This document shows, one piece after another, positions 3,201-30,427 of a DNA stretch of 64,000 nt. The DNA comes from an uncultured Anaerolineae bacterium. GTDB taxonomy: Bacteria; Chloroflexota; Anaerolineae; JAADDB01. The position numbers were made by a program, and so were the translations under genes. Where the stretch lies: positions 47,747 through 111,746 of the forward strand of contig CAZAQA010000009.1 of NCBI GenBank assembly GCA_964487375.1, written 5' to 3'. The notes under the pieces are model-generated. The model worked only from the letters and a program-made list of their open reading frames with translations. It made no database searches and was not told where the DNA came from. Numbering within the stretch: position 1 is the first letter of the stretch; each line of letters starts with the position of its first letter.

Positions 3201-4983
3201 AATAGTCGGCCTGACGCAAGTTGTGTTTGATCACCTCGAATTTCTTGGCCCTGTCCTCATCGTACATGGGCATCGTGACGTAACGATAGCGTCCCGGGTT
3301 GGCGTTGGGCTCGGGCAGGGGCAGGGGAAGTTGTCGATCCCAGTGCTCCACAGCCAAGCCGGCACCGTCGGGGATATGGGCGTAAATCCAACGGGAGGCG
3401 ACAATCCACGGATGTGTGTGGTCATATACCCCATGCACGAACGCCAGGGACCAGAAGATGGCGTGGGCGAGCACGACACCTGTCAGCAAACAGCCTGCCC
3501 AATACCTCATGCCTGAGATCCGATGCCTGAGATCCGATATCCTGTTATAGGCACCGGGTACAGGATATCGGGTGCCGGATATCGAAGACAGCAAGCCTAC
3601 GCCGAAGATAATGAGCGCGGGCACGATGGGCAAGGTGTAGCGCATGAACTTGGCCAGAAAGAGCCCGGTTGGGCCGAAGTAGAACACCACCCAGGCCAGA
3701 AGCATCCACTCGCCCGGCCACAGGCGACGGCGCGCAGCCTGCACGAAGGCCCAGGCCAATCCCAGCCATCCCAAGAGCCCCAACGCCCAACCCATGCCCC
3801 AGCGGATGGACTGGTTGATGTGATAGAGATATGGAATCGTGCCCCGGTACTGACGCGTGAAGGGGAAATCCGCGTCGCCCCGCACCATGGCTCCCTGTTC
3901 GACGAGAACCGCTTGCCTAAAGTTAGGCCAATCGAGGATGACATAGGGGGAGGTGAGGGCGAAGACGACGGCCGCGGTGCCAAAGGCCAGGATAAGGAGT
4001 TTGATGATGGAAAGAGGACGATAGGCGATAGACGATGGACCGGGGTGGCCCTGTCGTCCACCGTCCACCGTCCATCGTCTGTGCAGCAAATATGTCGCAA
4101 TGAGCGGCGCTACGATAATAGGCAAGGCGCTAAACTTGCTGGCGATGGCCAGGGCCATGCCCACGCCTGTGAGCACTGCGTCACGCGGGCGTCCCTCTTC
4201 GGCCATGCGCATGCCGCCGTACACGGCCAGCATGGTGAATGTGGTGGACATGGGATCCACGGCAAAAAAGTGGGCCAACTGTATTTGCGTCACGGTGAAG
4301 GTGGAAAGGGCCGCGGCCAGTAATCCCCACCATTTTTCGTACAGACGACGGGCAATCAGGTAGACCAGAAAGACGGTCAGGGTGTCACTCAGGGCCATGA
4401 GCAAGCGTCCCACGAACGCGAACCCGGGCGGGCTGGTGGCGGTGCGCAGCATCTGAACCGTCTCCGAGGAAGCGCCCAGGGCCTTGGCCGCGGGGGCCAG
4501 ATGTTTCGCTCCGTTGGCCGTTAGGACTAACAAATACAGGGGGAAGTGGCCGTAAGTATAGGAACGGCGACGGTTCGTGTTCACGTCCCAGAGCGGGTTC
4601 AAGGTGGACTTGTGGGGCTTGAGGATGTCGCTCAGATGCTCAGGCCAGTGGATGGTCGGCGCGTAAAAGGCCACCGTGGAAAGTTCGTCTGGATGGGCAA
4701 GCTGGCCTTCGTCCCACATGACATGGTACGTCCGCAGGTAGAGAGCAACGAGCAGCACCAAGAGGACGAGCACGGGGTGAAGTCGGTCGCGCCAGGCACG
4801 GCCGGAGAGCGGGATAGCCGGTTCCGGCGGGGTCGGGGGCGAATTCTGTCCCCGGGACGGAGCGAATCCAGACGCGTGTTCCTCGCCTTCGGCGATCTGC
4901 TGGGACTTCTCTGTGACCTGGGTCTCCATGATAAGCGTTGGCATCCTCAGATTAGTGAGAGTGAACCGGGCTTGACAAGCCAC
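265..4983 (-). CDS. Very large (about 1560-1572 aa) polytopic membrane protein, GT-C fold / glycosyltransferase family 39 (PMT/ArnT-like) or DUF2298-like
   Basis: Single uninterrupted 1572-aa ORF. Dozens of hydrophobic segments rich in W/Y/F/L. N-terminal region resembles PMT_2/ArnT-type GT-C modules (runs of TM helices with short D/E-containing loops). Internal proline/lysine-rich hydrophilic loop (PPPPPEEKKGP). Alternative starts are GTG 4983, ATG 4944 and ATG 4929. Antisense long ORFs on the + strand were judged high-GC artefacts. Confidence 0.7.
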   Translation of the reverse strand: MACQARFTLTNLRMPTLIMETQVTEKSQQIAEGEEHASGFAPSRGQNSPPTPPEPAIPLSGRAWRDRLHPVLVLLVLLVALYLRTYHVMWDEGQLAHPDELSTVAFYAPTIHWPEHLSDILKPHKSTLNPLWDVNTNRRRSYTYGHFPLYLLVLTANGAKHLAPAAKALGASSETVQMLRTATSPPGFAFVGRLLMALSDTLTVFLVYLIARRLYEKWWGLLAAALSTFTVTQIQLAHFFAVDPMSTTFTMLAVYGGMRMAEEGRPRDAVLTGVGMALAIASKFSALPIIVAPLIATYLLHRRWTVDGGRQGHPGPSSIAYRPLSIIKLLILAFGTAAVVFALTSPYVILDWPNFRQAVLVEQGAMVRGDADFPFTRQYRGTIPYLYHINQSIRWGMGWALGLLGWLGLAWAFVQAARRRLWPGEWMLLAWVVFYFGPTGLFLAKFMRYTLPIVPALIIFGVGLLSSISGTRYPVPGAYNRISDLRHRISGMRYWAGCLLTGVVLAHAIFWSLAFVHGVYDHTHPWIVASRWIYAHIPDGAGLAVEHWDRQLPLPLPEPNANPGRYRYVTMPMYDEDRAKKFEVIKHNLRQADYYIFATARLYKSIPRLPQRYPMTTRFYRLFFAGQLGFVRVLDVHNYPQLGPFVFPDDRADESFWVYDHPRVLIYKKVRDLSDEEWNRLLGGTWKGAKHWDVGGATLLQRIFKLLPSLGKGQKTSAPPPPPEEKKGPSLLLNVNFDEMPVVRWWRWNRWASEHTWPAIVLWWFVVTLIGLVAWPMTFLGFSNLRDRGYAFARGVGLLVVAYLAWIVPSLRLWTNDLPLVLTVLVIVTLLNAWLARRHWEKLRSFVQQNRRLLLFYEGLFAAAYLAFVFIRLLNPDLWQPWNGGEKFMEIAFLNATVRTPYFPPYDPYFAGGTINYYYWGYQIVNVLIKLTGITPTVAFNLAVPTLFALTVLAACALVYDMVSDWAPRSARWAGLIGAAFVALFGNLDGLGLILRNLAQVSGSDFRSIFPWLQTWVRALVGLSKVLAHEAVMPKYNYWLPSRVIPYTINEFPYWSFLFADLHPHMMGIPFTIVVLGMAYNLIIGARRFWFTEGFWAGLVQFALLPLGLGALAVINTWDLPTYLGVLAVALFLRQWRTRKRISWGLWAVQVGFILVGAYLLYRPFFSHYKPIAASGVGWAPQKTSLGKWLNIWGFWLFLAFSFLAVELTRRDRLPLARGLRALVVHYERLPRFLRLQRLLSRARHPGAERSYQVSSFGYQLGIVFAILTPLLWLAGYRVPAVLLLPLFIAAVLSLRMNAPAGVVFATFLAFTALLVLFGVEFVYLKDHLQGGDFKRMNTLFKFYIQAWVMLALAAAVGLSRIWEAIPRWKPTVRTVWQTVFAVLLVASLTFLVVGTVARVEDRFPEGLSERPPFGTLDGMAYMKYGVYTWPDPQHRIVLKWDYEAIRWLLDHEPRVVPIAEARLDYYREGGTRVASFTGLPTFMGLHQMGEQRYGWQTGPRQQLALEFWNTSDINRTMAIIRQVDIHYVYVGQLERQQYPPAAITRFDRMVERGLLKVVYRNRGVVIYQVVK

Positions 4984-10308: not shown

Positions 10309-11564
10309 GGATGAAGGGGCGAGCGATGCAAGGCCTGTGGCAGCGGAGTCCGGAGCGTGTGGCCTGGGTGGTCATGCTCCTCTCGTTTTTTCTCTGCCTG
10401 GTCCTGGCCGTCGGTACCCCGTTAGGGGTGCGGACCTTCCTCAGGCACGCGTCTCAGCCGGTTCCTCTGAAAGCCCGCTCCTTGCACGGCATTGCCCTCC
10501 TGGCCGTCCCCGGGCAGGAAGAACTGGCCGCCATCACCCGCCCGCGTGCTTTCACTCCCGGACGTACCCTGCGCACAGACGCGAGCTCTTCCGCGCTCCT
10601 GTCCGCCAGCGGAGAAGGAGGAGGGGAATTTGCGGCCGAGGTCATTACCATCCTCATGTACAATAACACCGAGCTGACCCTGCTCACCGCAGAACGTCCT
10701 CGGTTCCCCCAGTGGAGCCCCGACCCGGTACGGGTAAAAGTGCGGGTCGATCAGGGCCGTATCCGTGTGGTCAGCGGCCGTTACGACCACCGGCCACTGA
10801 TCACCACGGTGGAAACCCCCCACGGACTCGTGACGGCTCAGGACGCGTCTTTCTCGGTCTTCGTGAACAATCAAGGCATGGAAGTCACGGTCCGGCAGGG
10901 GAGAGTGCGGGTTTTTGCTCGGGGGCTGGAAGTGCCGGTGGCTGAAGGCCAGCGGACCAAGGTCCCTCTGGCCCAGCCTCCCCAACCGCCCACCTCCGCG
11001 GAGCGCAACCTGATTCGGAACGGCAATTTCACCCAGCCCTTGGAGACAACCTGGACGGTAGGATTTCTGCAGCCGGACGTGGTAACCGCGGGCACGGTTT
11101 CGGTCGTGGACGCGGGGGGACGCCGTGCGGTTCAGTTCACGCGCCGCGCCGAAGAGGGGGTACACACCGAAGTCTGGATCGAGCAGAAACTCAACCGGGA
11201 CGTGCGCGATGTGGATTCCCTGGTCCTGCGCATGGACGTACGTTTGCTCTACCAAAGCCTGCCTGGGGGAGGATTCCTGGGCTCGGAGTACCCATTGATG
11301 GTGCGCATCGACTACACCGATGTCTACGGCAAGGACCGTTTCTGGGTTCACGGGTTCTACTTCCGCGATCCGCAAAAGGGATGGCCCACAGTGAACGGAG
11401 AGAAGATTCCTCCCTTTGTCTGGTGGCCTTATGAATCCACCAACCTGGTGGCCCTTTGGGAGCAAACCAACACCCGGCCGGCCGTGCTGCACAAAATCCG
11501 CATTTACGCATCGGGACATAATTATCAGTCCATGGTGGCCGAGGTGGGGCTCTTTGCCCGCTGA
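10305..11564 (+). CDS. Hypothetical membrane-anchored protein (N-terminal TM helix, large extracytoplasmic domain; possibly FecR-like)
   Basis: ORF start overlaps the TPR stop. Hydrophobic anchor VAWVVMLLSFFLCLVLAVG. Remaining 380 aa hydrophilic with W/Y-rich C-terminus. No catalytic motif recognised. Confidence 0.55.
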   Translation: MRMKGRAMQGLWQRSPERVAWVVMLLSFFLCLVLAVGTPLGVRTFLRHASQPVPLKARSLHGIALLAVPGQEELAAITRPRAFTPGRTLRTDASSSALLSASGEGGGEFAAEVITILMYNNTELTLLTAERPRFPQWSPDPVRVKVRVDQGRIRVVSGRYDHRPLITTVETPHGLVTAQDASFSVFVNNQGMEVTVRQGRVRVFARGLEVPVAEGQRTKVPLAQPPQPPTSAERNLIRNGNFTQPLETTWTVGFLQPDVVTAGTVSVVDAGGRRAVQFTRRAEEGVHTEVWIEQKLNRDVRDVDSLVLRMDVRLLYQSLPGGGFLGSEYPLMVRIDYTDVYGKDRFWVHGFYFRDPQKGWPTVNGEKIPPFVWWPYESTNLVALWEQTNTRPAVLHKIRIYASGHNYQSMVAEVGLFAR

Positions 11565-12198: not shown

Positions 12199-13437
12199 TT
12201 ATCCTCCTGCCGATTCCGCCATCCGCTTGTGAAGTTGCAGGTAGCCTATTGTGGCAACCAGGCCGACGAGGCCGGCAATATACCAGACCCAACGCGGGTC
12301 ATAGTGGTCCATGACCCACCCGGCCGCGAGGGGACCGACCATTGCTGCCGCGACCCAACTCAAGCCAAACGCGGCCATGTAGCGTCCTCGCATGTCCTCC
12401 GGAGCTAAGTTAGCAGCGACCGCCCTGGCTGTGGGCACAATAAGCATTTCTCCCACGGTCAAAATCACAACGGCCGTCAGGAAGAGAACAAAAGTGGCCA
12501 CGATTCCGTACATGGCAAATCCGACTGCGTAGAGCAATGTGCCCAGCGCCAGAACGCGCATGGGGGGAGAGGCGTTGACGCGTCGCGTGATGGAGAACTG
12601 AAAGAGCACGACCAGGGCAGCATTCGTGCTCATAATGATGCCAAAGCCGGCCGCGGGCACGCCATGGACATCGCGCAGGTACACGGCCAACGTGGAGTAC
12701 ATCTGCGTGGCGACCATGGTCGTGAGGGTAAAGAGGAGGAGGAAAAGGACAAAGAGGCGGTTGCGGAAGACTACGGTGTATCCGGCGAGGGAACTCCACA
12801 AGGTGGCCGGTCGTTCGTCCTTTTTCGCAGCGATTGCAACCGGTCGCGTTTCTTGGATGTAGGCGTAGACGATGAGGGCCGTGATGAAACTGGAAACGGC
12901 ATCGAGGATGAAGAGCAACAGGTAGGAACGACTGGCCAAGAACCCTCCGATGGCCGGGCCGACGGCTACTGTGGCATTCATGGCCACCCGAAAGACGGCA
13001 AATCCGTCCGCCCGCTGTTCCTCCGGGAGCAAGTCGGCGATCATGGCCATCTGGGCCGGCTGAGCGGCCTGGGCAAAAAGCCCGGCCAGGAAGGCAAAAA
13101 CATAGAAGAGCGATAGCCGGTTGACCAGTCCCATCCCCAAACCGGTCGCGGCGCTGGTGAGCAGGCCGAAAATGAGCATGCTCTTGCGGCCTATCAGGTC
13201 GGTGAGTGCGCCTCCTACGACCTGCCCAAACAGTGTGGCAAGAGCGTAGAAGGAAAAGAGGAAGCCCACTTCGGTCATGCCGACCCGGAATCGGGCCGTG
13301 AGGTAGAGGGAGAAGAAGGGGAAGAGGAGTGCTCCTCCCAGGTTGTCGATGAAGGAAGCCGCGACAATCAGCCAGAACTGAACCGGATATGCCCGGTATG
13401 TGGAACGAATCCGCTCCTGGAGTCCCAAAATGCTCAA
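12199..13437 (-). CDS. MFS transporter
   Basis: 412 aa, 12 predicted TM helices. MFS motif A-like G-x-L-x-D-x-x-G-R-K (GGALTDLIGRKSM) between TM2 and TM3, repeated in the second half. Confidence 0.8.
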   Translation of the reverse strand: MSILGLQERIRSTYRAYPVQFWLIVAASFIDNLGGALLFPFFSLYLTARFRVGMTEVGFLFSFYALATLFGQVVGGALTDLIGRKSMLIFGLLTSAATGLGMGLVNRLSLFYVFAFLAGLFAQAAQPAQMAMIADLLPEEQRADGFAVFRVAMNATVAVGPAIGGFLASRSYLLLFILDAVSSFITALIVYAYIQETRPVAIAAKKDERPATLWSSLAGYTVVFRNRLFVLFLLLFTLTTMVATQMYSTLAVYLRDVHGVPAAGFGIIMSTNAALVVLFQFSITRRVNASPPMRVLALGTLLYAVGFAMYGIVATFVLFLTAVVILTVGEMLIVPTARAVAANLAPEDMRGRYMAAFGLSWVAAAMVGPLAAGWVMDHYDPRWVWYIAGLVGLVATIGYLQLHKRMAESAGG

Positions 13438-13754
13438 AGCTTATCTCCTTGGAATCGCAGGATGCCGCTGAGCCCTACCTCTGCGTCGATGCTTCCCGAG
13501 CACGGCCCTGGTCCCGAGGTGTTCGAACCGCTCCGATGGCGGCATAAGTGTAAGAGGGAGGCGCAGACCGGACAAATTGGGCCGGGACGCAAGTCAACGG
13601 CGTGGGAGATGGGGCCTTACTGCGCTGGCTCATATACAAGGCAGCCTGATATGGTATACTCTTATGAGTGCATTCGAATACGCGTGTGCCCGGCGAGTAC
13701 GCTTCCATCATATTTTCATACAATAGCACGTGGCGTCACACGAGGAGGTGTGAG

Positions 13755-14972
13755 ATGTCTCCGGAGTTGGTCGCTAAACCTGGTGAGGTCCAGTTTGCCA
13801 AGGGCATGGAAGGAGTCATCGCCCGTGAAACCACCAAGAGTTACGTCGACGGAAAGAACGGTAAGCTGTACTATCACGGTATTCCCATCGAGGAGCTGGC
13901 CGAGAACTCCTCCTTTGAGGAAGTGGCGTTCCTACTTCTATACGATCGCCTGCCGACGGAGTCGGAATTTGAGTATTTCAAATCCCGGATGGTCCAATAT
14001 CGTGAGATCGCTCCCGAAGTGTATGATTACATCATTAAGGCCAGCGGCAGGTACAACGATACGCCTATGTCCGTTCTACGCACGGCGGTTTCTATGTTGG
14101 CTTCCTTCGATGACTCCGCGGAAGAGGATAGCCTGCCCGCGCATGAGCGCGAGGCCATCAAACTGATTTCCCGCCTGGCCACCATTGCAGCAGCCATTGG
14201 GCGGGCCCGCCATGGCCTGGAGCCCATCCACCCACGTCCCGATCTCTCCCACGCCGGAAATTTCCTCTACATGCTCTTCGGCGAGGCTCCCGATCCCTTT
14301 TACGAACGCGTGATGGACGTGATTCTGGTTCTGCACGCGGACCACGGTTGTAATGCCTCCACATTTGCCACCCTGGTCGTCAAATCAACCTTGTCGGACA
14401 TGTATTCTTCGATTGTGGGCGGTATTTCCGCCCTCAAGGGGCCTTTGCACGGAGGGGCCAATCAGCGAGTGATGAAGATGCTGCGGGAGATCGGCGAGCC
14501 GGATCGGGCGGAAGAATGGGTCCTGAAAGCGCTGGCCAAGAAACGGCGCATCATGGGATTCGGCCACCGAGTTTACAAGGCGTACGACCCGCGAGCCCGC
14601 ATACTCCACGGCTATGCCGAAGAAGTGGTCCGACGCGCCGGAACGGAGAAGTACCTGCACATGGCGGAGATCATCGAGCGCGTCATGATCGAGCATCTGG
14701 GCAAGAAGGGCATCTTCCCCAATGTCGACTTCTACTCGGGGGTGGTCATGTCCTCGATGGGCATCGACAAGGATCTCTTCACCCCTATTTTCGCCATGGC
14801 TCGCGTGGCCGGTTGGACGGCTCATGCCCTCGAACAGCGCATGGACAACCGCATTTTCCGCCCGCGCTTTGTGTACGTGGGGCCGGTCATCGACCACTGG
14901 GTGCCGATGGAAGAACGCCAGAAGCCAGAAGAGGAGCCAACACCACTCAATCCCTTGGAGAAGGTGTTGTAG
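13755..14972 (+). CDS. gltA: Citrate synthase
   Basis: Full-length similarity pattern to bacterial citrate synthases (ARETTKSYVDGKNGKLYYHGIPIEELAE; catalytic His/Asp region GFGHRVYK..DPRA). ATG at 13755; the upstream 29 codons of the track ORF were discarded. Confidence 0.9.
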   Translation: MSPELVAKPGEVQFAKGMEGVIARETTKSYVDGKNGKLYYHGIPIEELAENSSFEEVAFLLLYDRLPTESEFEYFKSRMVQYREIAPEVYDYIIKASGRYNDTPMSVLRTAVSMLASFDDSAEEDSLPAHEREAIKLISRLATIAAAIGRARHGLEPIHPRPDLSHAGNFLYMLFGEAPDPFYERVMDVILVLHADHGCNASTFATLVVKSTLSDMYSSIVGGISALKGPLHGGANQRVMKMLREIGEPDRAEEWVLKALAKKRRIMGFGHRVYKAYDPRARILHGYAEEVVRRAGTEKYLHMAEIIERVMIEHLGKKGIFPNVDFYSGVVMSSMGIDKDLFTPIFAMARVAGWTAHALEQRMDNRIFRPRFVYVGPVIDHWVPMEERQKPEEEPTPLNPLEKVL

Positions 14973-14996
14973 CTGCTCGTATGTGCTTCCCCTGTG

Positions 14997-15029
14997 CCCT
15001 GCAAGCGTCGGCTTGCAGGGCGTTTTTTT
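14997..15029 (+). terminator. Rho-independent terminator after citrate synthase
   Basis: Perfect 10-bp stem CCCTGCAAGC / GCTTGCAGGG with a GTCG loop, followed by TTTTTTT (15023-15029), 25 nt after the gltA stop. Confidence 0.7.
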
Positions 15030-15286
15030 GTCTTCGATGATAAGGAGAGTGCCCAGACAAAATCCATTCATCCCGACTCTCGGAGGACTATCGTTCTACA
15101 AAGGGAATCATTCATCCCCTGGCAGGGGCAAACGGCCTTTTCTTATACAATGCATACATCGCGCAAACCCTCATCTAACATTCTGCAGGGATACTGGAAG
15201 CAGCAACGAGAAACGTCGCAAATGGGGCGGATAGCGGATAAATGAAGCTAACCGCTCAAAGCACAAGAAGAACAAGGAGGATAACG

Positions 15287-15712
15287 ATGCGTGAGTATAC
15301 ACCTTTCGAGGCCATGATGCGAGAGATGTTGGGCCAGATGTTGGACCCGACGCTTCGGGGCAGGGAGTCCACGGCTCAGCCTCGCGCAGCTCGTCTACCT
15401 GTGGATGCGTGGCTGGACGGCGATAAGCTTATCCTGCAGGCCAATCTACCTGGCGCCCGTCCTGAAGATGTAGACATTACCTTTGAAGGGGATACGTTAA
15501 TCATCAATGCGGTGCTTCCCGAGCCCAAAATGAGTGGCCAGGCCGTGTTGCGGGGGCGCTACCATGGTCCCGTCCATCGAGCCCTGACGCTGGACATTCC
15601 GGTGGATGAAGAGAGGGCAGAAGCGGTGTTCAAGGATGGCGTGCTGACGCTGACCATGCCGCGAGCCGACAAGGGGCGCACCCGCAAGATTCACGTCAAG
15701 GCCGTCCCTTGA
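15287..15712 (+). CDS. Hsp20/alpha-crystallin family small heat-shock protein
   Basis: Alpha-crystallin domain with conserved P-x14-GVL-x-L (AVFKDGVLTLTMP). Sequence pattern VDAWLDGDKLILQANLPGARPEDVDITFEGDTLII. Confidence 0.85.
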   Translation: MREYTPFEAMMREMLGQMLDPTLRGRESTAQPRAARLPVDAWLDGDKLILQANLPGARPEDVDITFEGDTLIINAVLPEPKMSGQAVLRGRYHGPVHRALTLDIPVDEERAEAVFKDGVLTLTMPRADKGRTRKIHVKAVP

Positions 15713-15879
15713 GCGGGGTCGCTGCCCGATCTCTAACACTTCGCTAATTTTCGTCTTGCGTAGTTCTAACGCGACCTTGCTATAAAAAGGAATGGATTCC
15801 CAAAGGCGATGAGAGAGACGTGGGAATGCCCATCTTTCATCCTTGGGGAAGGACGTACACGTCCTGAGGAAGAAAGGAG

Positions 15880-16344
15880 GTGGCAATCATGGCTGAACTG
15901 ACGCTCTGGGAACCGGTACGCGAGGTGATGAACTTGCAGAGGGTGATGGACCGCATGTTGGAGGAAACGCTGGGCCCCTGGTACCAGCCGGTCGCGGACA
16001 GCGGTCGATGGGGACGCCGCTATGTGCCGGTGGACATTTACACGACGGATGAGAATGTGGTGATCCTGGCGGCGTTACCGGGGCTGCGCCCCGAGGACGT
16101 GGACATCACCTTCGAGGGGAACACGGTCACCCTGCGAGGTGAGTTCGCTCAGCCGACCGAGGAGAACATCAACTGGCACTTGCAGGAGCGCTATTACGGC
16201 CCCTTCGAGCGGACCATCACGCTCAACATCCCGGTGGACATGGATCACGCGGAGGCCTTTTTCGAGAACGGCCTGCTGAAGCTCATCATTCCCAAGGCCG
16301 AGGAGATTCGCCCCAAGAAGATCAAGGTTCATGTCAAAAAGTAA
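15880..16344 (+). CDS. Hsp20/alpha-crystallin family small heat-shock protein (second paralog)
   Basis: Paralogous to the previous gene (VDIYTTDENVVILAALPGLRPEDVDITFEGNTVTLRGE...FENGLLKLIIPK). GGAGG RBS. Confidence 0.85.
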   Translation: MAIMAELTLWEPVREVMNLQRVMDRMLEETLGPWYQPVADSGRWGRRYVPVDIYTTDENVVILAALPGLRPEDVDITFEGNTVTLRGEFAQPTEENINWHLQERYYGPFERTITLNIPVDMDHAEAFFENGLLKLIIPKAEEIRPKKIKVHVKK

Positions 16345-16362
16345 GGGACGGAAGCGCAGGGT

Positions 16363-16405
16363 AGGTCCTGAACAGGACCTGGGAGCGAGCCGCGGGCTCG
16401 CTCCC
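16363..16405 (+). terminator. Tandem GC-rich hairpins downstream of hsp20 (terminator-like, no U-tract)
   Basis: AGGTCCTG-aa-CAGGACCT (16363-16380). Immediately followed by GGGAGCGAGCC-gcg-GGCTCGCTCCC (16381-16405), an 11-bp perfect stem. Confidence 0.4.
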
Positions 16406-16468
16406 CCTGTGTCTAGAACCGATTACCATTCACTGTGAAGTATCCGTGTGTGAGCAGGAGGTGTGTCT

Positions 16469-16768
16469 ATGGGTTACAAGTTGCGACCTCTAGGAGATCG
16501 GGTGGTGGTCAAGCCGGTTGAACATGAGAATCAGTTGCCGAGTGGCATCATCCTGCCAGAGACCGCAAATGAAAAGCCTCAGATTGGTGAAGTGATTGCC
16601 GTCGGACCGGGCCAAAAGACCGAAGACGGCAAACGAGTCCCTCTCGATGTGGTGGTAGGTCAACAGGTTGCTTTCCCCAAGTATGCAGGAACGGAGCTGC
16701 GCCTCAACGGGGATACGTATTTGCTAATGCATGAGAATGATTTGCTCGCAGTCGTCGAACAGGAGTAA
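16469..16768 (+). CDS. groES: Co-chaperonin GroES
   Basis: About 100 aa. YKLRPLGDRVVVKPVE...GIILPETA motif. AGGAGG RBS 9 nt upstream of the ATG. Confidence 0.9.
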   Translation: MGYKLRPLGDRVVVKPVEHENQLPSGIILPETANEKPQIGEVIAVGPGQKTEDGKRVPLDVVVGQQVAFPKYAGTELRLNGDTYLLMHENDLLAVVEQE

Positions 16769-16856
16769 CCTACGGAAGGTATCAAGCATCCCATGGTGGG
16801 ATGAAGTTCATGGGCATACAGATCTCGAAGAGATTTCAACAAAAAGGAGGGTGTGA

Positions 16857-18506
<1,650 letters not shown>

Positions 18507-18528
18507 TCACCGCTCCCTTTAGAAATAC

Positions 18529-18562
18529 AGACGGGGGATGCCGTTATCGGCGTCCCCCGTCT
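18529..18562. terminator. Hairpin between convergent groEL and the FAH gene (putative bidirectional terminator)
   Basis: AGACGGGGGA / TCCCCCGTCT 10-bp stem with a 14-nt loop that itself contains GCCG..CGGC. Lies between the groEL stop (18506) and the FAH stop (18566). Confidence 0.45.
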
Positions 18563-18565
18563 TGC

Positions 18566-19456
18566 TTAACGCAGGACTCGAAGTCGGTCTTCTTCCGGTT
18601 CACCGATTTTATTTCTCAGCACGCCAATGCCTTCGATTTCCAATTCAACCTCGTCCCCCGGTCGGAGCCAACGCCCCACTTCGACGCCGCTACAGCCGGG
18701 GAATGTGCCTGTACCTAGGAGTTCACCAGGGTAAAGGATTTCACCCCAGGAGGCATACGCGACCATGTCACCCAGCCCGTGGGTTGGGTGGGCTGCTGAT
18801 CCCTCACCCCACACCTCTCCGTTGACGCGCACCGTGCCACGGAGGGCTTCGAATCGCGGAAGCACCTCGTCGGCTGTAATCACATCAGGGCCCAGCGCGT
18901 TGGCGAAATTTTTGGCTTTGAGGACGGGACCGAACACGCCTTCGGTGAACTCACGTGCTTGTAAGTCGCGAGCGCTGAAATCGTTGAGGACCACAAATCC
19001 ACCGATAGCGGCTTCCCCCTCCTCGGGCGTGAGGTTGCGTCCGGACCGAGCGATAATGACACCTAACTCCAATTCGTAGTCCAAAGCGCGCGAGTAGGGA
19101 GGCCAGGGAATTGTTTCACCATCACCGCAGAAGTTGAGGTGATTGCCCATGTAGTACACTGGAACCTAGTAAAACATCTTTTTGGGTTTCAGTTTGGGGA
19201 ACGTGTGGCCTGTGATGGACTCATACAAAGTGAGGAGTCTTCGAGTTCGGGGCATGAAACGGCGCACAACGCCGCGAGCAGCGTCAATCATGTGCCTTTC
19301 CCACAGGGAATAATCGCGAAAGGATCGGGGCTCAAAGGGCAACATCGGGGCAGGATTGAAGGTATGATCCCAATCAACCTCCACCCTGTGCGCCCACGCA
19401 AGTACCTCCTGAGCGTACTTCCGTACCTCCTCTCCTGCGGCCAGGAAGGCAGTCAT
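18566..19456 (-). pseudogene. Fumarylacetoacetate hydrolase (FAH) family gene interrupted by one in-frame TAG (N-terminal 96 codons plus C-terminal 197 codons in the same frame)
   Basis: Minus-strand reading gives ...TFPKLKPKKMFY-TAG-VPVYYMGNHLNFCGDGETIPWPPYSRALDYELELGVII.... The stop (19166-19168) sits inside the conserved P-x-yy-k/m-g...DYE-x-EL FAH core. Both ORFs are in the same frame with no shift. Confidence 0.5.
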
Positions 19457-19485
19457 ATCATCGACTGCGAAGATCGGTTCCTGGG

Positions 19486-19491
19486 ATTATA
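19486..19491 (-). promoter_or_regulatory. Consensus -10 box (TATAAT) about 30 nt upstream of the FAH start codon
   Basis: Minus-strand ATATTATAATCCC in an unusually AT-rich patch of a high-GC genome. No clean -35 element found. Confidence 0.25.
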
Positions 19492-20048
19492 ATATGTCCT
19501 GCCTCCCTGTAACCCTCCAACGCAGGGGCCAGAGGAATCCACCGATGGTCCACCCGGACAATTAAGGTAAATCCGGATGTGTCGCGGCGTCTGACGCGTC
19601 GTAGATGCATGCTCCTTCCTCCCAGAGCGGTCTTCCAGGAGACCGGCGGCCCGTATAAGGCCTCTCGTGGTCTCCTTTCGCCTTAAGTAACAAACACGTG
19701 TCCGTGAATCCACAGGGCGAAAAGTGCCCGAGATTAATCCGACGTTACGCTTCAGAAGATCCCGGACCGGTAGTTTGCTAGCGTTTCCTCGGTCTTCACC
19801 ATAAATCGCCCATATGATTGCACCCTTGCTCGTGTGCAGGCGATTCTACTACGTGGGTCGAATGGGTGTCAAAGAACATCCCCAGCCTTCCCGCCGGAGG
19901 TTCCTCAGGGGTCCGGCCATCAAAACTGCGTCCCACACGCTGTAACCCTGTGTCTTGCAGTTCCCTCCTTATGAGCCCTCCCTCACACGGGGCATTGCAA
20001 GTGGGGGGAAGCTCACCGCTCAAGCGTTGAAGAGCTTTACTCCCCGAT

Positions 20049-20087
20049 TTGACATCCTAGAGCGTTCATGCTATCCTTTGAAAGGAT
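20049..20087 (+). promoter_or_regulatory. Putative lacI-family gene promoter (TTGACA-N17-TATCCT) overlapped by inverted repeat ATCCTTT-g-AAAGGAT
   Basis: Consensus -35 TTGACA at 20049-20054, 17-nt spacer, TATCCT at 20072-20077. Inverted repeat at 20073-20087 shares the GATTCAA half-site with the downstream 21390-21403 palindrome. Confidence 0.3.
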
Positions 20088-20121
20088 TCAATTTCTGCTC
20101 ATGAACCTCCGAGGCAAAACG

Positions 20122-21183
20122 ATGAGTCCAACCATTCGTGATGTCGCTCGTCGAGCTGGTGTCAGCGTTGGCACGGTATCCCACGTGCTTAATGGGTCCG
20201 CGACGGTCAGCGAGGCCACTCGCGCTCGCGTGCTCGAAGCCATTCGCGATCTGGATTACCACCCCGACGAAGCTGCTCGCACTCTGCGCCGTCGTACCAC
20301 GGGGACGATCGGCCTTGTGCGTTCAGTCGAGGGGGGCGCACACATGTTGACTGAGGCCAACGATTACGTCTTCCTGGAATTCCTGGCCGGAGCCCAGGAA
20401 GTGACCATGCGGGAGGGCATCGGCATTCTCCTATGGGCAGCAAGCCCTGGCCCCTCGGAGGAAGAGGTGTACCGCCGGCTGGTCCGCGGCCGCCGTGTGG
20501 ACGGTTTCTTGCTCTTGGGGACACGCACCGATGACTGGCGGGTTCACTATCTGGAAGAGCAGGGAGTTCCCTTTGTAGCTTTCGGGCGGGCCCCAGACGG
20601 CGGTGATTTTCCTTACGTGGATGTAGACGGCGAGAAAGCCCTGGTGTTAATCACCGAACACCTGGTGTACCTGGGGCATCGCCGTATCGGTTACATCGAG
20701 CCCCCCAAAGGACTGATGTGTGCAGTCCACCGTCGCAACGGATACTTGAGCACCCTGGAACGTCACCACACCCCGGTGGACGAGCGTCTGATCATAGCCG
20801 GCGGGTTTACCTGGGAGGACGGGGAGCGGGCGATGCGGGACCTGATGTACCTGCCCGATCCGCCCACGGCGGTCATTGCGCCCAATGACGTTGCAGCCAT
20901 GGGAGCGGTGGCTGCGGCCAGGGTCATGGGATTAGAGGTAGGTCGAGACATCTCCGTCGTGGGATTCGACGATATTCCGCTGGCCGCGTACTGGGAGCCG
21001 CCCTTAACCACGGTGCATCAGCCCGCGCGCTGGATAGGCGCAGAAGTCACGCGTATGCTTTTGGCCTTGCTTTCGCATGGTTCGGTGCCTTCATTGCACG
21101 TTCTCGTCTCCCCGGAGTTGCGGGTGCGCCAGTCCACCGGACCGGCGCCGCAGCCTGAAAGAGAACAATGCATCGACATATAG
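20122..21183 (+). CDS. LacI family transcriptional regulator
   Basis: N-terminal HTH TIRDVARRAGVSVGTVSHVLNG...RARVLEAIRDLDYHPDEAARTLR. Periplasmic-binding-protein-like sugar-binding core. ATG at 20122. Confidence 0.85.
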   Translation: MSPTIRDVARRAGVSVGTVSHVLNGSATVSEATRARVLEAIRDLDYHPDEAARTLRRRTTGTIGLVRSVEGGAHMLTEANDYVFLEFLAGAQEVTMREGIGILLWAASPGPSEEEVYRRLVRGRRVDGFLLLGTRTDDWRVHYLEEQGVPFVAFGRAPDGGDFPYVDVDGEKALVLITEHLVYLGHRRIGYIEPPKGLMCAVHRRNGYLSTLERHHTPVDERLIIAGGFTWEDGERAMRDLMYLPDPPTAVIAPNDVAAMGAVAAARVMGLEVGRDISVVGFDDIPLAAYWEPPLTTVHQPARWIGAEVTRMLLALLSHGSVPSLHVLVSPELRVRQSTGPAPQPEREQCIDI

Positions 21184-21389
21184 CTGTCACGTCAAGCACT
21201 CAGAGGAGGCATAAGCAGGAATTCTTGACCATTCTGGTAAGACGGGACGATCGGTGCCACCGCGATTGCGTTGATTCTGAGAAATCGCCGACCGCCCTCC
21301 TGCTATGTGGGGCATTGAATCCCGTGTTACCTCCGCAGCAAGCGACGCGTTAGGGTCTGAGCAACAAGTCATTATTTTTTCCTTGCGTC

Positions 21390-21403
21390 TTGAATCGATT
21401 CAA
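21390..21403. promoter_or_regulatory. Perfect 14-bp palindrome TTGAATCGATTCAA: candidate LacI-family operator upstream of the sugar ABC operon
   Basis: Located about 120 bp upstream of the SBP start. Symmetric about a central CG as in LacI/GalR-type operators. Preceded by a T6 run. Confidence 0.5.
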
Positions 21404-21524
21404 TCAAATACCTCAAATCACTGTTGTCTGGTATCACCTTGAGGAAGGGGGGTGAAAAAATCGGCCCATAGTGTTTGCATTGTCCCATTTCATGTTCTTG
21501 AGTTCATGTCAAGGAGGAAGAATC

Positions 21525-22871
21525 ATGACCCGTGTACGTTATGTGATCCCATCACTCTTGCTGGTCCTCGTCTTAGTGTTCCTCTTGGGAGCCTGCGCTC
21601 GACCTACGCCGAAGGTTGTGAAGGAGACGGTCGTCGTCACCAAAGTCGTCGAAAAAATGGTCACACCGGAAAAACCCGCCGAGAAAATTACACTCATCAT
21701 CACCAGCGGTTCCGGCTCGGCCGGGAGCACGAAGGTGATGAAGAAGCAGATCGAGCGCTACATGCAGAAGCACCCTAACATCGACGTCAAAATCCAGGAG
21801 ATGCCCTGGTCCTCCACTCAGCAGCATGACATGTACGTCACCTGGGCCGCGGGCGGTCTTCCCGTGCCCGACATTTACCGCATCGACATTGTCTGGCCAC
21901 CCGAGTTCGCGGCTGCCGGCTGGATCCTGCCCCTGGACAAGTACATCCACAAGTACAACGTCAATATGAGCGACTACTTGCCCGGCCCTATCAACGGGGT
22001 GACCGTTAATGGTAAAATCTATGCCATGCCCTTCTTCACCGACGCTGGCCTGCTCTACTACCGCAAGGACCTGTTGGAAAAATACGGCTTTCAACCGCCG
22101 GAAACCTTTACTGATCTGAAAAAACAGGCCCTTACCATCATGAAGAAGGAGGGTATCCCCAACGGTTTCGTGTGGCAAGGTGATGCCTATGAGGGCTTGA
22201 CCGTAGATTTTCTGGAGTATGTGTGGGGCAATTGTGCCGACGTCTTGGACAAGAATGGTAACGTGGTTATCGATAACCCCAGAGCGGTAGAAGCGCTGAA
22301 AGTAATGGTAGATTACATTCAGTCAGGGGTTTCACCCGAGGGGGTGACTACCTACAAGGAAGAGGACGCACGCAATGTCTTTCAACGCGGTGACGCTGTC
22401 TTCATGCGCAATTGGCCCTATGCATGGCGTCTGCTCAACAAGGATGACTCTCCGGTCAAGGGCAAGGTGGGTGCCAAGCCCATGGTGCATGGCGAAGGGT
22501 GCAAGAGCGCCGCGGGTTTGGGCGGCTGGAATCTGGCCGTCAATAGCCAAAGCAAGCATCCTGAGGAAGCCTTCAAACTTATTGCCTACTTGACAAATCC
22601 TGAGAACCAAAAGGAGTTGGCTTTAGAGGCGGGGTTGAGCCCGGTGCGCAAATCTCTCTACCAGGACCCGGATCTGCTGGCAGCCAACCCGTTCTACAAG
22701 ACCTTGTACAACGTGTTCCTGAACGCGCGGCCACGGCCTGTGCACCCGCGCTATCCGGAGATATCTGCTACCATCTTCACCGAAGTGCACAAGGCTTTGG
22801 TGGGCGAAGAAACCCCTGAACAGGCTATTAAGCGTATGGCCGAACAAATTCGCGGAATTGTCGGCAAGTAA
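21525..22871 (+). CDS. Sugar ABC transporter substrate-binding lipoprotein (extracellular solute-binding family 1)
   Basis: AAGGAGGAAG RBS. Signal peptide with lipobox LLGAC. Pro/Lys/Val-rich tether then SBP fold (MalE/MsmE-like). Confidence 0.85.
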   Translation: MTRVRYVIPSLLLVLVLVFLLGACARPTPKVVKETVVVTKVVEKMVTPEKPAEKITLIITSGSGSAGSTKVMKKQIERYMQKHPNIDVKIQEMPWSSTQQHDMYVTWAAGGLPVPDIYRIDIVWPPEFAAAGWILPLDKYIHKYNVNMSDYLPGPINGVTVNGKIYAMPFFTDAGLLYYRKDLLEKYGFQPPETFTDLKKQALTIMKKEGIPNGFVWQGDAYEGLTVDFLEYVWGNCADVLDKNGNVVIDNPRAVEALKVMVDYIQSGVSPEGVTTYKEEDARNVFQRGDAVFMRNWPYAWRLLNKDDSPVKGKVGAKPMVHGEGCKSAAGLGGWNLAVNSQSKHPEEAFKLIAYLTNPENQKELALEAGLSPVRKSLYQDPDLLAANPFYKTLYNVFLNARPRPVHPRYPEISATIFTEVHKALVGEETPEQAIKRMAEQIRGIVGK

Positions 22872-22976
22872 GAACTGTATCCCTGTGCCTCCCCCCTCCT
22901 TTCCCTCGGTGCTTGGAGAGGAGGGGTGGGGGAGGCAACAGAGAGGACAGGAGAAAGGGAGCGGGAAGGAGGGCGC

Positions 22977-23900
22977 ATGTCGGGAAGCGAGAGAGTAATG
23001 CACAGGCTGCAACGCGTTCGCAAACACGGACTTTCTCAGCGTCAACTGGCCGTGGTTCTCATGGTACCAGCCCTTTTCACCATTCTTGTCATCGCCATCT
23101 ACCCGCTGATGCAGACCTTTTGGCTGAGCCTACAGGATTACAATCTCAAGTTCGCGGCTCAACGTCATTTTGTAGGAATGGGCAACTACGTGAAGCTGGC
23201 CCAAGATGAGCATTTCCATCAGGCGTTGAAACACACGCTTTTCTTCACGGCGGTCTCCGTAAGCCTGGAATTCGTCCTCGGACTAGCCGTCGCCTTGACC
23301 ATTCATCGGCCTTTCTGGGGCCGCGGTCTGGTGCGCGCAGCTGTATTGGTGCCGTGGGCCATCCCCACTGTCATCTCCGCTCGCATGTGGGAGTGGATGT
23401 GGAACGACCAGTTCGGCGTCATCAACGATATCCTTCTACGCCTACATCTTATCACCCACTCGTACGCCTGGTTGGGCAAACCTGCTACCGCCATGTGGGC
23501 CATCATCGTCACCGATGTGTGGAAAACCACTCCCTTCATGGCTTTACTGCTGTTAGCAGGCCTACAGGTGATTCCGGAAGACCTGTACGAATCGGCGATG
23601 ATCGATGGCGCGGGCGTGTGGCAGCGCTTCTTGTATGTAACTCTGCCCCTGCTCCGACCGGCCGTTCTGGTTGCCGTCATCTTCCGCACTCTGGATGCCT
23701 TCCGCGTCTTCGACGTGGTCTACGTACTCACTGGGGGAGCCAGCAACACAGAAACCCTGGTCGTACTCAACCAGCGAGTTCTCTTCTCCTTTCTGGAATT
23801 CGGCTTTGGATCGACCATCTCCACAGCCATTTTCATCATCATCTTCTTTTTCAGCGCGATGTACATGCGTATCCTGGGACTTAAACTGGAGGTGAAATGA
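22977..23900 (+). CDS. Carbohydrate ABC transporter permease (MalF/UgpA-like)
   Basis: Six TM helices. EAA-loop region DLYESAMIDGAGVWQRFLYVTLPLLRPA. Start ATG 22977 (AGGAGG 4 nt upstream); alternatives 22926 and 22998. Confidence 0.8.
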   Translation: MSGSERVMHRLQRVRKHGLSQRQLAVVLMVPALFTILVIAIYPLMQTFWLSLQDYNLKFAAQRHFVGMGNYVKLAQDEHFHQALKHTLFFTAVSVSLEFVLGLAVALTIHRPFWGRGLVRAAVLVPWAIPTVISARMWEWMWNDQFGVINDILLRLHLITHSYAWLGKPATAMWAIIVTDVWKTTPFMALLLLAGLQVIPEDLYESAMIDGAGVWQRFLYVTLPLLRPAVLVAVIFRTLDAFRVFDVVYVLTGGASNTETLVVLNQRVLFSFLEFGFGSTISTAIFIIIFFFSAMYMRILGLKLEVK

Positions 23901-23901
23901 C

Positions 23902-24741
23902 ATGACCCGGCAACGGCGCGTGCACGCGTCTACTTTGCTGTTCTACTTGTGGGTTATCGCCTACGTGGCGATATCCATATTTCCCCTTTACTGGGCCATC
24001 AATACGTCTTTGAAGACGCACACCGAGATCATCGTCTGGCCGCCCACCTGGTTCCCCCACGCCCTTACCTGGGCCAATTATCGGGCGACCTTTGCTGAAC
24101 ACCAGTTCGGCCGCAACATTCTGAACAGCATCCTCGTGGCCGGGGGGACGACCATCCTGGCCCTGGCCCTGGGTTCCTTGTGTGCCTACGCGTTAGCCCG
24201 TCTCCGGTTCCCGGGCAAACTGGCCATTTTAGGCTTCATTCTCATGACCTCCATGTTTCCTAGTATCGCTATTGTTAGCCCGCTCTTCATCTTCTTACGC
24301 AGATTGCACTGGTTGAACACATTTCAGGGTCTTATTGTGCCCTACACCAGTTTTGCCCTGCCGCTCACCATCTGGATTCTCACCAGCTTCTTCCACGAGA
24401 TTCCTTACGAACTGGAAGAAGCCGCGTTGGTGGATGGGGCAACGCCATTTCAAGCTTTGCGCCTTATCATCCTGCCCCTGGCCGCGCCCGGCCTGGTTAC
24501 CGCGGGCCTGCTCGTCTTCATCGCCGCCTGGAATGAATTTCTCTTCGCTCTCAACTTCACTCTGGACAACACCACGCGTACGGTCCCGGTAGCGATTGCC
24601 CTCTTCTCTCGCCAGTTCGAAGTGCCCTGGGGCGAACTGAACGCAGCCTCAGTCGTAGTCACGTTACCCCTTGTATTACTCGTCCTTATCTTCCAGCGCC
24701 GTATCATTGCCGGACTGACTGCGGGGGCTGTCAAAGGATGA
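23902..24741 (+). CDS. Carbohydrate ABC transporter permease (MalG/UgpE-like)
   Basis: Six TM helices. EAA motif ELEEAALVDGATPFQALRLIILPLAAP. Start 2 nt after the upstream stop. Confidence 0.85.
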   Translation: MTRQRRVHASTLLFYLWVIAYVAISIFPLYWAINTSLKTHTEIIVWPPTWFPHALTWANYRATFAEHQFGRNILNSILVAGGTTILALALGSLCAYALARLRFPGKLAILGFILMTSMFPSIAIVSPLFIFLRRLHWLNTFQGLIVPYTSFALPLTIWILTSFFHEIPYELEEAALVDGATPFQALRLIILPLAAPGLVTAGLLVFIAAWNEFLFALNFTLDNTTRTVPVAIALFSRQFEVPWGELNAASVVVTLPLVLLVLIFQRRIIAGLTAGAVKG

Positions 24742-25892
24742 TGGCATTCTCTCACGAAAGCCATGGGGCATGCACCTCCTCCCTGTACAGGCGAGACATA
24801 GAGATCATTCGCACCGCCCAGCATCCTCAGGGAGCCTACCCGGCTGCACCCAACTTCTCCCCTTATCAGTACGCGTGGTTCCGCGATGGGGCCTTCATTG
24901 CCTATGCCATGGATACGGCAGGAGTCCATGACAGCGCCCACCACTTTCACGCCTGGGTCGTAAGCGTCATTTTGCGCTATAAGGGAAAGGCTGAACGAAC
25001 TACAAAGAACGAGCAGCAGGAACCTCTTCCCGATCGCAATTACCTGCACGCCCGTTATGCCCTCACTGGGGAGGAAACCGACGACAAATGGCCTAATTTC
25101 CAACTGGACGGGTTGGGCACGTGGCTCTGGGCCGTGGGCGAACATCTCCATCACACCGGCATTTCTCTTCCACCCTCGTGGGCAGACGCAATCGAGCTAG
25201 TAGCAAACTACCTGGCCACATGGTGGCCTCTTCCCTGTTACGACCTGTGGGAAGAATCAGACGCCCAATTGTACGTCTACACGCTGGCCAGCATCTTCGC
25301 TGGTCTTCACGTGGCTGCTCGTCTGATGAATGGCCCCTGGGCCAGGGAATCCCAACGAATTCGCGACTTCATTCTTCGTCATGGCGTAAACGAGGGCCAC
25401 TTTGTCAAGGGTATTGCCCGTTCGGACGGACACATACCTGTAGGAGGAATAGACTCAAGTCTTGTGGGTGTGAGCGTACCCTACGGGGTAGTGGCACCCA
25501 CCGACCCCAGAGCACAGGCAACGGTGGAACGCATAGAAAAGACCCTGCACCGCCCTGGAGGGGGCGTGTACCGTTATCGAGGGGACACTTACTATGGCGG
25601 CGGAGAATGGCTGCTGACCTCGGCTTGGCTGGGATGGTATTACGCCACCGTGGGGGAGTTCCAGCGTGCCCGTGAACTGTTGGCGTGGATAGAAGCACAA
25701 GCCGACGAGCGAGGTTTTCTGCCTGAGCAAGTCACCGAACACGCTCAGTTTCCCCAGTTCATCACGATGTGGCAACAACGGTGGGGGAATGTAGCGCGTC
25801 CTCTGTTGTGGTCACACGCAATGCACCTCATCCTCTGCCACGCACTTCAAAAACAAGAAGCCGACCGGGGGACATCCGGCCGGCTTGAATAA
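24738..25892 (+). CDS. Glycoside hydrolase family 15-like protein (glucoamylase/glucodextranase/trehalase-type (alpha/alpha)6 catalytic domain only)
   Basis: Motifs YAWFRDGAF (W-x-RD), NFQLDGLGTWLWA, DLWEE (general acid region), LLTSAWLGWYYA. Start overlaps the permease stop (ATGATG/TGA). No signal peptide, so it is cytoplasmic. Confidence 0.7.
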   Translation: MMAFSHESHGACTSSLYRRDIEIIRTAQHPQGAYPAAPNFSPYQYAWFRDGAFIAYAMDTAGVHDSAHHFHAWVVSVILRYKGKAERTTKNEQQEPLPDRNYLHARYALTGEETDDKWPNFQLDGLGTWLWAVGEHLHHTGISLPPSWADAIELVANYLATWWPLPCYDLWEESDAQLYVYTLASIFAGLHVAARLMNGPWARESQRIRDFILRHGVNEGHFVKGIARSDGHIPVGGIDSSLVGVSVPYGVVAPTDPRAQATVERIEKTLHRPGGGVYRYRGDTYYGGGEWLLTSAWLGWYYATVGEFQRARELLAWIEAQADERGFLPEQVTEHAQFPQFITMWQQRWGNVARPLLWSHAMHLILCHALQKQEADRGTSGRLE

Positions 25893-25967
<75 letters not shown>

Positions 25968-29270: not shown

Positions 29271-29906
29271 TCACACCTTCCCCGGTTCCCACATGGCAGT
29301 AGACGCGCGCTTGCGCCGGATTCGGACGGCCCAGGCCATGAAGCCGCCCGTCAACAGGAAAGTCATGCCGATGGTATGCCACTTCAACAGGGGCAACACG
29401 CGCAGGTCAGGGATGGCCGGGAAGTAGCCCAACCCGTAATCCACGTAATCGCTGCTGATGAACCACGCACCGGCCACCAACGCCCAGGTGATACGCGGAC
29501 GCAAAGCGTAGAGCAAGTAGAGGCCCTCCAGGATCATGCCAATGTGTGTCAGGCACATGGCCACGCCCATGCCGCTGAGGGGGTACCCCAAGGCCCAGTA
29601 ACCATACCAGGCCAGGTTCGTCCAAACGCCATACTTGATCAGGCCGAAGGCCACCAGCAGATTGTACGCATTGTTCCCTCGGCCTCGCAACGTCAAAATG
29701 AACGCCGGGACAAACAGAAGAGCGAAGAGAGGACAATCGGGGATGAAGGGCCAAAGATACAAAGGAGATTGGAGCAACTGTCCTCCATACCAGTAAATCG
29801 TGCCCCAGACGAACCCTATCAAGTTGGCCAGAATGATGACCCCGACCGCCCAGGGTTGTTCTGCCAGGTGGACCAGCCGCCCATATGTCCTCATGAGTGT
29901 GTGCAT
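29271..29906 (-). CDS. Hydrophobic W/Y-rich membrane protein, DUF1405-like
   Basis: 211 aa, about 6 TM helices, many Trp/Tyr at helix ends. Family name assigned from memory of the composition and is uncertain. Confidence 0.5.
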
Positions 29907-29908
29907 GA

Positions 29909-30427
29909 TTACTCCTCGTCTTCCGTCTCACGTGTCGAACGGGCCAGAGGCCGGGCCGGCACGCCACCCACCACCGCGCCAGCCGGGACATCCTTGTTCA
30001 CCAGACTCATGGCGCTGACCGTGGCCCCATCTCCGATGACCACGCCCGGCAAAATGGTGCAATTGGCGCCAATGGTGACGTTCTTGCCGATGACCACCGG
30101 TCCTCGCCGCCATTCTCGTCTCAAATATTCGTGGCCCAGAATTACCGTGTTGTAGCCGATGATGCTATTGTCCCCAATGTGAATCTCCTCCGGAAAGAAA
30201 ATGTCCATCATCGCCATCAACCCTACGGACACATGCCGGCCCACCCGCATGCCCACCCGTCGGTAGAGCCAGTTTTTGAGGGCCAGAGAAGGGATGAACC
30301 GGCAGAGATAGATGATGAGAAAATTGCGCACAACCTTGAGCGGATGAACAGTCTCAGTCCAGTGTTGGAGAGAGTTGCGTTCATCCGGACTTCTCGTCGT
30401 GATTAATCGCTCATGTCGGGTCATCAA
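29909..30427 (-). CDS. Hexapeptide-repeat (left-handed beta-helix) acetyltransferase
   Basis: Repeating [LIV]-G-x-x-x-x hexads (IGDNSIIGYNTVILGHE...VVIGKNVTIGANCTILPGVVIGDGATV). C-terminal GGVPARP typical of WbbJ/CysE-type sugar O-acetyltransferases. Confidence 0.7.
   Translation of the reverse strand: MMTRHERLITTRSPDERNSLQHWTETVHPLKVVRNFLIIYLCRFIPSLALKNWLYRRVGMRVGRHVSVGLMAMMDIFFPEEIHIGDNSIIGYNTVILGHEYLRREWRRGPVVIGKNVTIGANCTILPGVVIGDGATVSAMSLVNKDVPAGAVVGGVPARPLARSTRETEDEE

Follow-up and report, generated by a model that had tools for sequence, protein, structure and literature searches.

The window, the whole 64-kb stretch of DNA analysed here, belongs to an uncultured Chloroflexota (Anaerolineae/Ardenticatenales-like) bacterium from the iron mats of Lo'ihi Seamount. 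On its minus strand, three open reading frames of 50, 96 and 197 aa, distributed over two frames, jointly tile a single homologue of the FAH family. They lie between groEL, whose stop codon faces theirs, and a stretch with residual similarity to a cyclase gene. The coordinates of these features and of their surroundings are collected in Table 1.

Table 1. Features at the FAH locus and in its neighbourhood (window coordinates)
Feature	Coordinates	Strand	Basis
Whole ancestral FAH-family gene, very probably now a pseudogene	18566..19610	-	tblastn, synteny, homologue length
N-terminal fragment ORF, 50 aa, starts MHLRRVRRRDTSGFTLIVRVDHRWIPLAPALEGYREAGH; original start codon	19458..19610	-	77% identity to residues 1-43 of the L022 orthologue
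Zone with a net +1-nt insertion (frameshift)	19462..19490	-	alignment with three orthologous genes
Middle fragment ORF, 96 aa (the upstream ORF of the sequence-only reading)	19166..19456	-	homologous to residues ~52-147 of intact relatives
Premature amber codon TAG, codon 148 of the ancestral protein	19166..19168	-	direct reading and alignment
C-terminal fragment, FAH catalytic domain; ORFs from GTG 19159 or ATG 19150	18566..19165	-	PF01557, E = 5.5e-44
GTTACA-N16-TATAAT, inside the ancestral coding sequence	19486..19513	-	promoter scan, 10/12
Degenerate 3' remnant of a PF04199 cyclase gene	~19611..19795	-	nhmmer profile and alignment A2 (residual similarity)
Promoter-like TTGACA-N18-TAGAAT of the ancestral cyclase-FAH operon	19843..19872	-	promoter scan, 11/12 against the sigma-70 consensus
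GC-rich hairpin between the convergent groEL and FAH stop codons	18529..18562	.	direct reading: AGACGGGGGA...TCCCCCGTCT
Sugar cassette genes: LacI-type regulator, ABC solute-binding protein, two permeases, GH15 glycoside hydrolase	20068-21183, 21471-22871, 22926-23900, 23902-24741, 24738-25892	+	

The closest relative contig, L022 (ENA, 8 kb), is collinear with window positions 12457-19611, at ~81% nucleotide identity over most of that length. Both carry genes for an MFS transporter, citrate synthase, two HSP20 proteins, groES, groEL and the FAH protein, and the lesions described below are local, in that all of these neighbours are full-length in the window. The heat-shock cluster (HSP20, HSP20, groES, groEL) occupies 15242-18506 on the plus strand and is conserved with L022. 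The hairpin that separates groEL from the FAH gene was absent from the output of the pattern scan and was read directly from the sequence; it probably serves as a bidirectional terminator.

Beyond the FAH locus, a 6-kb sugar-utilisation cassette (19875-25892) fills the space between the relic of the cyclase promoter and tRNA-Trp (25893-25967), and the stop codon of its GH15 gene abuts the 3' end of the tRNA gene. L022 has only 72 nt in its place, which may reflect an insertion here or a loss there; direct repeats flanking the cassette, as expected of an integrated element, were looked for and not found. Between the solute-binding-protein and permease genes, an inverted repeat at 22886-22937 (22-nt arms, 77% complementary, spaced 8 nt apart) may form an intra-operon hairpin. 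Farther on, two overlapping plus-strand ORFs (29376-30155 and 30131-30406; 259 and 91 aa) match no Pfam family, and their GC3 values, 0.59 and 0.52, are lower than the window norm of ~0.72; the region may be foreign or non-coding, or may hold another gene that has been disrupted. The window also holds a 1572-aa ORF at 265-4983 on the minus strand, with a GC3 of 0.77.

How long was the FAH gene before it was interrupted? Among ~5.8 billion proteins searched, thousands of FAH-family relatives were found, the best of them 85% identical. Because intact homologues measure 335-350 aa, and the closest ones 344-350 aa, the ancestral gene is placed between an ATG at 19610 and a TAA at 18566, a span of 1045 nt, or 348 codons plus one extra nucleotide, with a product of ~347 aa. 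The sequence-only reading had drawn the gene from 19456 to 18566. Its 3' end holds, but its start does not: the readthrough product from 19456 would be 296 aa, ~50 aa shorter than the closest relatives, whose N-termini start MRLRRVRRRDTSGLTLIVQTDEQWIPLAPALERYQEAGH. When the intact L022 orthologue was compared with the window by tblastn, residues 1-43 aligned at 19610..19482 in frame -3 and residues 42-341 at 19486..18587 in frame -1. Nucleotide synteny with L022 begins at 19611, at the FAH ATG, and a Shine-Dalgarno sequence, GGAGG, lies 7 nt 5' of this codon.

The earlier reading had described two minus-strand ORFs in one frame, split by a TAG at 19166-19168, and on this point the sequence bears it out. 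The 96-aa ORF (19456..19166) and the 197-aa ORF (19159..18566) share one frame, and TAG is the sole stop between them; the minus strand at the site reads AAA AAG ATG TTT TAC TAG GTT CCA GTG TAC TAC ATG GGC AAT CAC. That reading had also allowed that the upstream ORF might be unrelated to FAH proteins; alignment shows that it is homologous to the N-terminal half of the full-length relatives. The stop had further been placed within a conserved block. It does lie between the conserved motifs PK.M.Y and.P.YYMG.H, but the column itself is variable: 57 homologues have Glu (33), Gln (17), Asp (3), Arg (2) or Ala (2) there, and none has a stop. All four of the closest intact proteins have Gln at this position. 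In a codon-level DNA alignment the TAG stands opposite CAG in L022 and L001 and opposite GAC in L002. Among the codons that had been anticipated in relatives (TGG, CAG or TAC), CAG is thus the one found, alongside GAG and GAC, and the simplest history of the amber codon would be a single C-to-T transition, CAG to TAG.

A second, independent lesion lies ~300 nt 5' of the amber codon. All three aligned orthologous genes show a single 1-nt gap opposite an extra nucleotide in the window, which MAFFT puts in the ATAA at 19490..19487. Since the frame that starts at 19610 (frame A) ends at TGA 19460..19458 and the frame of the two downstream ORFs (frame B) carries a TAA at 19489..19487, any position from 19490 to 19462 is compatible with the alignment. 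When one base is removed within this zone, the 14-residue spacing seen in the homologues is restored. The frameshift had gone unnoticed in the sequence-only reading, as had the true start at 19610 and the deletion in the partner gene.

What kind of protein did the gene encode? The readthrough product, with X at the stop, scores 150.8 bits with PF01557 (FAA_hydrolase), whose cut-off is 23.9 (E = 5.5e-44). The match covers residues 97-284 of that product; its first residue is the stop position itself, which corresponds to position 30 of the 214-position profile. The amber codon therefore sits just 5' of the catalytic domain, and solved FAH-fold structures align from residue 149 onward only. Blocks characteristic of the subfamily (DYELELG, LNDFSARD and KAKNF) are retained in the window copy. 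No NCBIfam equivalog assigns it a function: whether the window protein or the intact orthologue is scored, all seven FAH matches stay well short of their cut-offs, the best being TIGR02303 (HpaG-C) at 72-78 bits against 276. Judged by sequence, the gene is a member of an uncharacterised subfamily whose proteins measure ~345 aa and carry an N-terminal extension of 150 aa.

Members of this subfamily have a constant companion. A PF04199 cyclase gene adjoins the FAH gene in the loci of 12 relatives, upstream of it in L001, L002, L011, L012 and L044-L047 and downstream in L013, L014, L017 and L020; it is also upstream in L022, where the pair occupies positions 323-2145. In the nearest relatives the cyclase gene is the immediate upstream neighbour. 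The pair occurs in metagenome-assembled genomes of Chloroflexota, Desulfobacterota and Spirochaetota. Since the flanks are otherwise unrelated among these loci, the cyclase and the ~345-aa FAH protein form a conserved two-gene module. The function of the cyclase is no better defined by NCBIfam equivalogs, none of which is reached (best, arylformamidase at 27.9 bits, where 223 are required). In an outgroup search for neighbour genes, contigs of P0002 and P0004 had no neighbours in common with the window.

In L022 a tRNA-Trp gene precedes the cyclase gene, which ends 17 nt before the FAH start. Clear homology between the window and L022 halts at the FAH ATG, and upstream of it the window holds a degenerate tail of the cyclase gene behind its old promoter-like site. 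An nhmmer search of the whole 64 kb with a profile of five cyclase genes gave its best match at 19795..19666 on the minus strand (E = 0.0013), covering model positions 563-724 of 785, in the syntenic place and orientation. Still farther upstream, 19874..19842 and L022 positions 250-281, which lie just upstream of the intact cyclase gene, share 85% identity over 34 nt (E = 4e-4). The remnant and the promoter-like site together show that the 5' part of the cyclase gene, ~560-590 nt or about three quarters of it, has been deleted. At the protein level, neither tblastn nor Smith-Waterman comparison with shuffles found a significant cyclase remnant; the DNA profile alone detected it. The peptide 'THSTHVVESPAH' in the ORF at 19796..20023 was considered as a remnant of the cyclase HxGTHxDxPxH motif and was set aside as coincidence, the DNA there aligning with the non-coding promoter region of L022.

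These alignments also bear on expression. The sequence-only reading had taken a TATAAT patch just upstream of its gene as a sign that the locus still looks expressed. This TATAAT (19491..19486) is mutated coding sequence at the frameshift zone, and the L022 counterpart of the whole GTTACA-N16-TATAAT element is ordinary coding sequence in which the motif is absent. The better candidate for a promoter is the conserved TTGACA-N18-TAGAAT at 19872..19843.

Could the gene be intact in the organism, with the TAG and the extra base mere consensus errors? The window is a metagenome assembly (Lo'ihi Seamount deep-sea iron mat, IMG 3300009408, Illumina, IDBA-UD), and what can be compared are consensus sequences. 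The locus was recovered in an IDBA-UD co-assembly (L023), in two metaSPAdes per-sample assemblies (L024 and L050) and in the Logan assembly of SRR5189949 (L049). All of these derive from one Lo'ihi sampling campaign, and the two metaSPAdes re-assemblies, Ga0257019 and Ga0256915, represent two different mat samples and re-assemble the same read sets. At the level of assembly consensus, the TAG and the frameshift region are nevertheless identical in all four, so that the amber codon, whose assembly the earlier reading had questioned, is retained in four other contigs from different assemblers and samples. Three of them are separate consensus calls, because each carries one or two SNPs relative to the window (L024, L049 and L050; the SNPs lie at 11137 in one contig, at 20250 in another, and at 20661 and 17736 in the third). 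The data are Illumina reads, and neither lesion lies in a long homopolymer. Two errors would be needed in one gene while ~50 other ORFs are clean; among the ~52 long ORFs of the window, no other split or broken gene was found that would betray a noisy assembly. The adjacent loss of ~590 nt from the cyclase gene is, moreover, structural and not a base-call error. The sequencing error that the sequence-only reading had offered as one option is for these reasons very unlikely.

If both lesions are real, might the cell read through them, or make do with a fragment? Recoding would take a +1 frameshift at or before TGA 19460-19458 (near 19460-19490) and then readthrough, suppression or pyrrolysine insertion at the amber codon to give the full-length enzyme. 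A +1 slip at the TGA of frame A would indeed enter the correct frame, and no damage is seen in the promoter-like site, the ribosome-binding site or any conserved catalytic block; were the organism still making the enzyme by two such events, these features would reflect continued selection and not recent decay. The programmed readthrough raised earlier would not restore the protein by itself, because of the frameshift. A stop at the amber column is absent from all 57 aligned homologues (relatives have Gln, Glu or Asp there, and not Lys), and the extra nucleotide is absent from all three orthologous genes in the alignment. The junction reads AGT CGA TGA, with CGA as the P-site codon, and lacks a prfB-like CUU-UGA slippery site with its upstream Shine-Dalgarno sequence. 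TAG is also a normal terminator here: it ends 6 of the 52 long ORFs in the window, including the LacI-type gene and the citrate synthase gene, whose TAG matches the end of its orthologue. An Rfam scan of the window returned tRNA only, and the sole tRNA in the 64 kb is Trp-CCA. Two independent low-efficiency events in one mRNA would give a negligible yield, and the operon partner no longer exists as a working gene; continued production of the full-length enzyme in this way is extremely unlikely. A shorter product deserves slightly more thought. The 194-197-aa FAH domain, either alone or together with the 96-aa piece, might be expressed in its own right and be active, perhaps from the GTTACA-N16-TATAAT motif (19513..19486), which derived substitutions have created upstream of the 96-aa ORF; the blocks of the catalytic domain are unmutated, and minimal FAH-fold enzymes such as FAHD1 have only ~220 aa. 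The fragment starts, however, at the equivalent of FAHD1 residue 41-42, so that the first 40 residues of the minimal fold are missing, and a Shine-Dalgarno sequence was sought 5' of ATG 19456, GTG 19159 and ATG 19150 and found at none of them. Of the 120 best homologues, nearly every one is a single chain of ~310-380 aa, and the few shorter entries among them (249-289 aa) come from contigs of 1.3-4.4 kb. With the partner cyclase gone as well, a functional truncated or split protein is decidedly unlikely.

We conclude that the locus is very probably a recently inactivated, unitary pseudogene of a ~347-aa FAH-family enzyme within a decaying cyclase-FAH operon. The two-gene operon has sustained three lesions, namely the amber codon, the frameshift and the cyclase deletion. 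A pseudogene was among the options of the sequence-only reading, and it gains from the sense codon that relatives have at the amber position, from the second lesion and from the large deletion in the partner gene.

When did inactivation occur? The coding signature of the gene is still good, which makes its inactivation recent compared with the divergence from the closest relative known. Where at least 95% of the 57 homologues agree, the window copy deviates at a single residue (V to I, residue 244). The dN/dS of the FAH gene against L022 is 0.083, mildly above the 0.017-0.065 of its neighbours; with dS saturated at ~1-2, pairwise dN/dS was discarded as an uninformative test of relaxed selection. 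Unambiguous amino-acid changes number 15 in the window lineage and 3 in the sister lineage, and the FAH branch lengths are 10.9% and 6.7%, respectively. This excess was likewise rejected as evidence for relaxed selection. Citrate synthase, which is intact and served as a control (window 13755-14972 against L022 and P0122-P0129), shows an asymmetry that is the same or stronger, with 6 changes against 0 and branches of 4.9% against 2.0%, ~2.4-fold longer in the window lineage. The amino-acid excess is therefore a lineage effect, which suggests that the window lineage evolves faster in general; it is compatible with recent inactivation but lends it no separate support. The GC3 of the FAH gene, 0.60 against 0.70 in the orthologue, is suggestive at most. 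In scans of genome and metagenome collections, the L022 orthologue, at 85% identity, was the nearest relative found, and no strain turned up whose copy is intact.

The preferred history of the pseudogene would run as follows. The cell came to do without the pathway, or lost the cyclase partner, and selection on the FAH gene ceased; disabling mutations in the FAH gene could then have become fixed. With its promoter-like site and the ribosome-binding site of the FAH gene preserved, the region is probably still transcribed. Translation from the ATG at 19610 would end after 50 codons at TGA 19460-19458, and no functional FAH enzyme would be made.

For annotation, the three small ORFs, which appear in IMG as separate genes (96 and 194 aa), are best joined into one pseudogene (18566..19610), with the cyclase remnant recorded upstream of it. 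The locus carries two cautions of wider use: an obvious in-frame stop need not be the only lesion of a gene, and what looks like an AT-rich promoter may be coding sequence that has mutated. As an uncharacterised catabolic module that the window lineage has discarded, the conserved cyclase-FAH pair is mildly interesting.

How does the locus compare with known systems? The C-terminal 190 residues strongly match the fold of the FAH superfamily, which includes HpaG/HpcE, FAHD1, L-2,4-diketo-3-deoxyrhamnonate hydrolase and fumarylacetoacetase. Members of this superfamily are uninterrupted, whereas the window copy is split by a frameshift and a TAG into pieces of 50, 96 and 197 aa, and the best solved structures align with the window protein from residue 149 only. 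The likeness to +1 frameshifting in prfB (RF2) is superficial: the window has an ORF junction at which a +1 shift at TGA restores the frame, but it lacks the slippery CUU-UGA, and the shift is not conserved in the orthologues, which show no frame change. Equally superficial is the in-frame stop shared with amber readthrough and pyrrolysine decoding, since this stop is not conserved and TAG is a normal terminator there. The closest parallel is with bacterial unitary pseudogenes. Like them, the window has point lesions in a well-preserved coding sequence, intact orthologues in relatives, a functionally linked neighbour that has been lost, and promoter-like and ribosome-binding signals that remain. 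Gene-specific relaxation of selection is not measurable here, the loss being recent and the nearest relative at synonymous saturation, and nothing at the locus is unusual for this class. The FAH locus is an ordinary early stage of gene decay.
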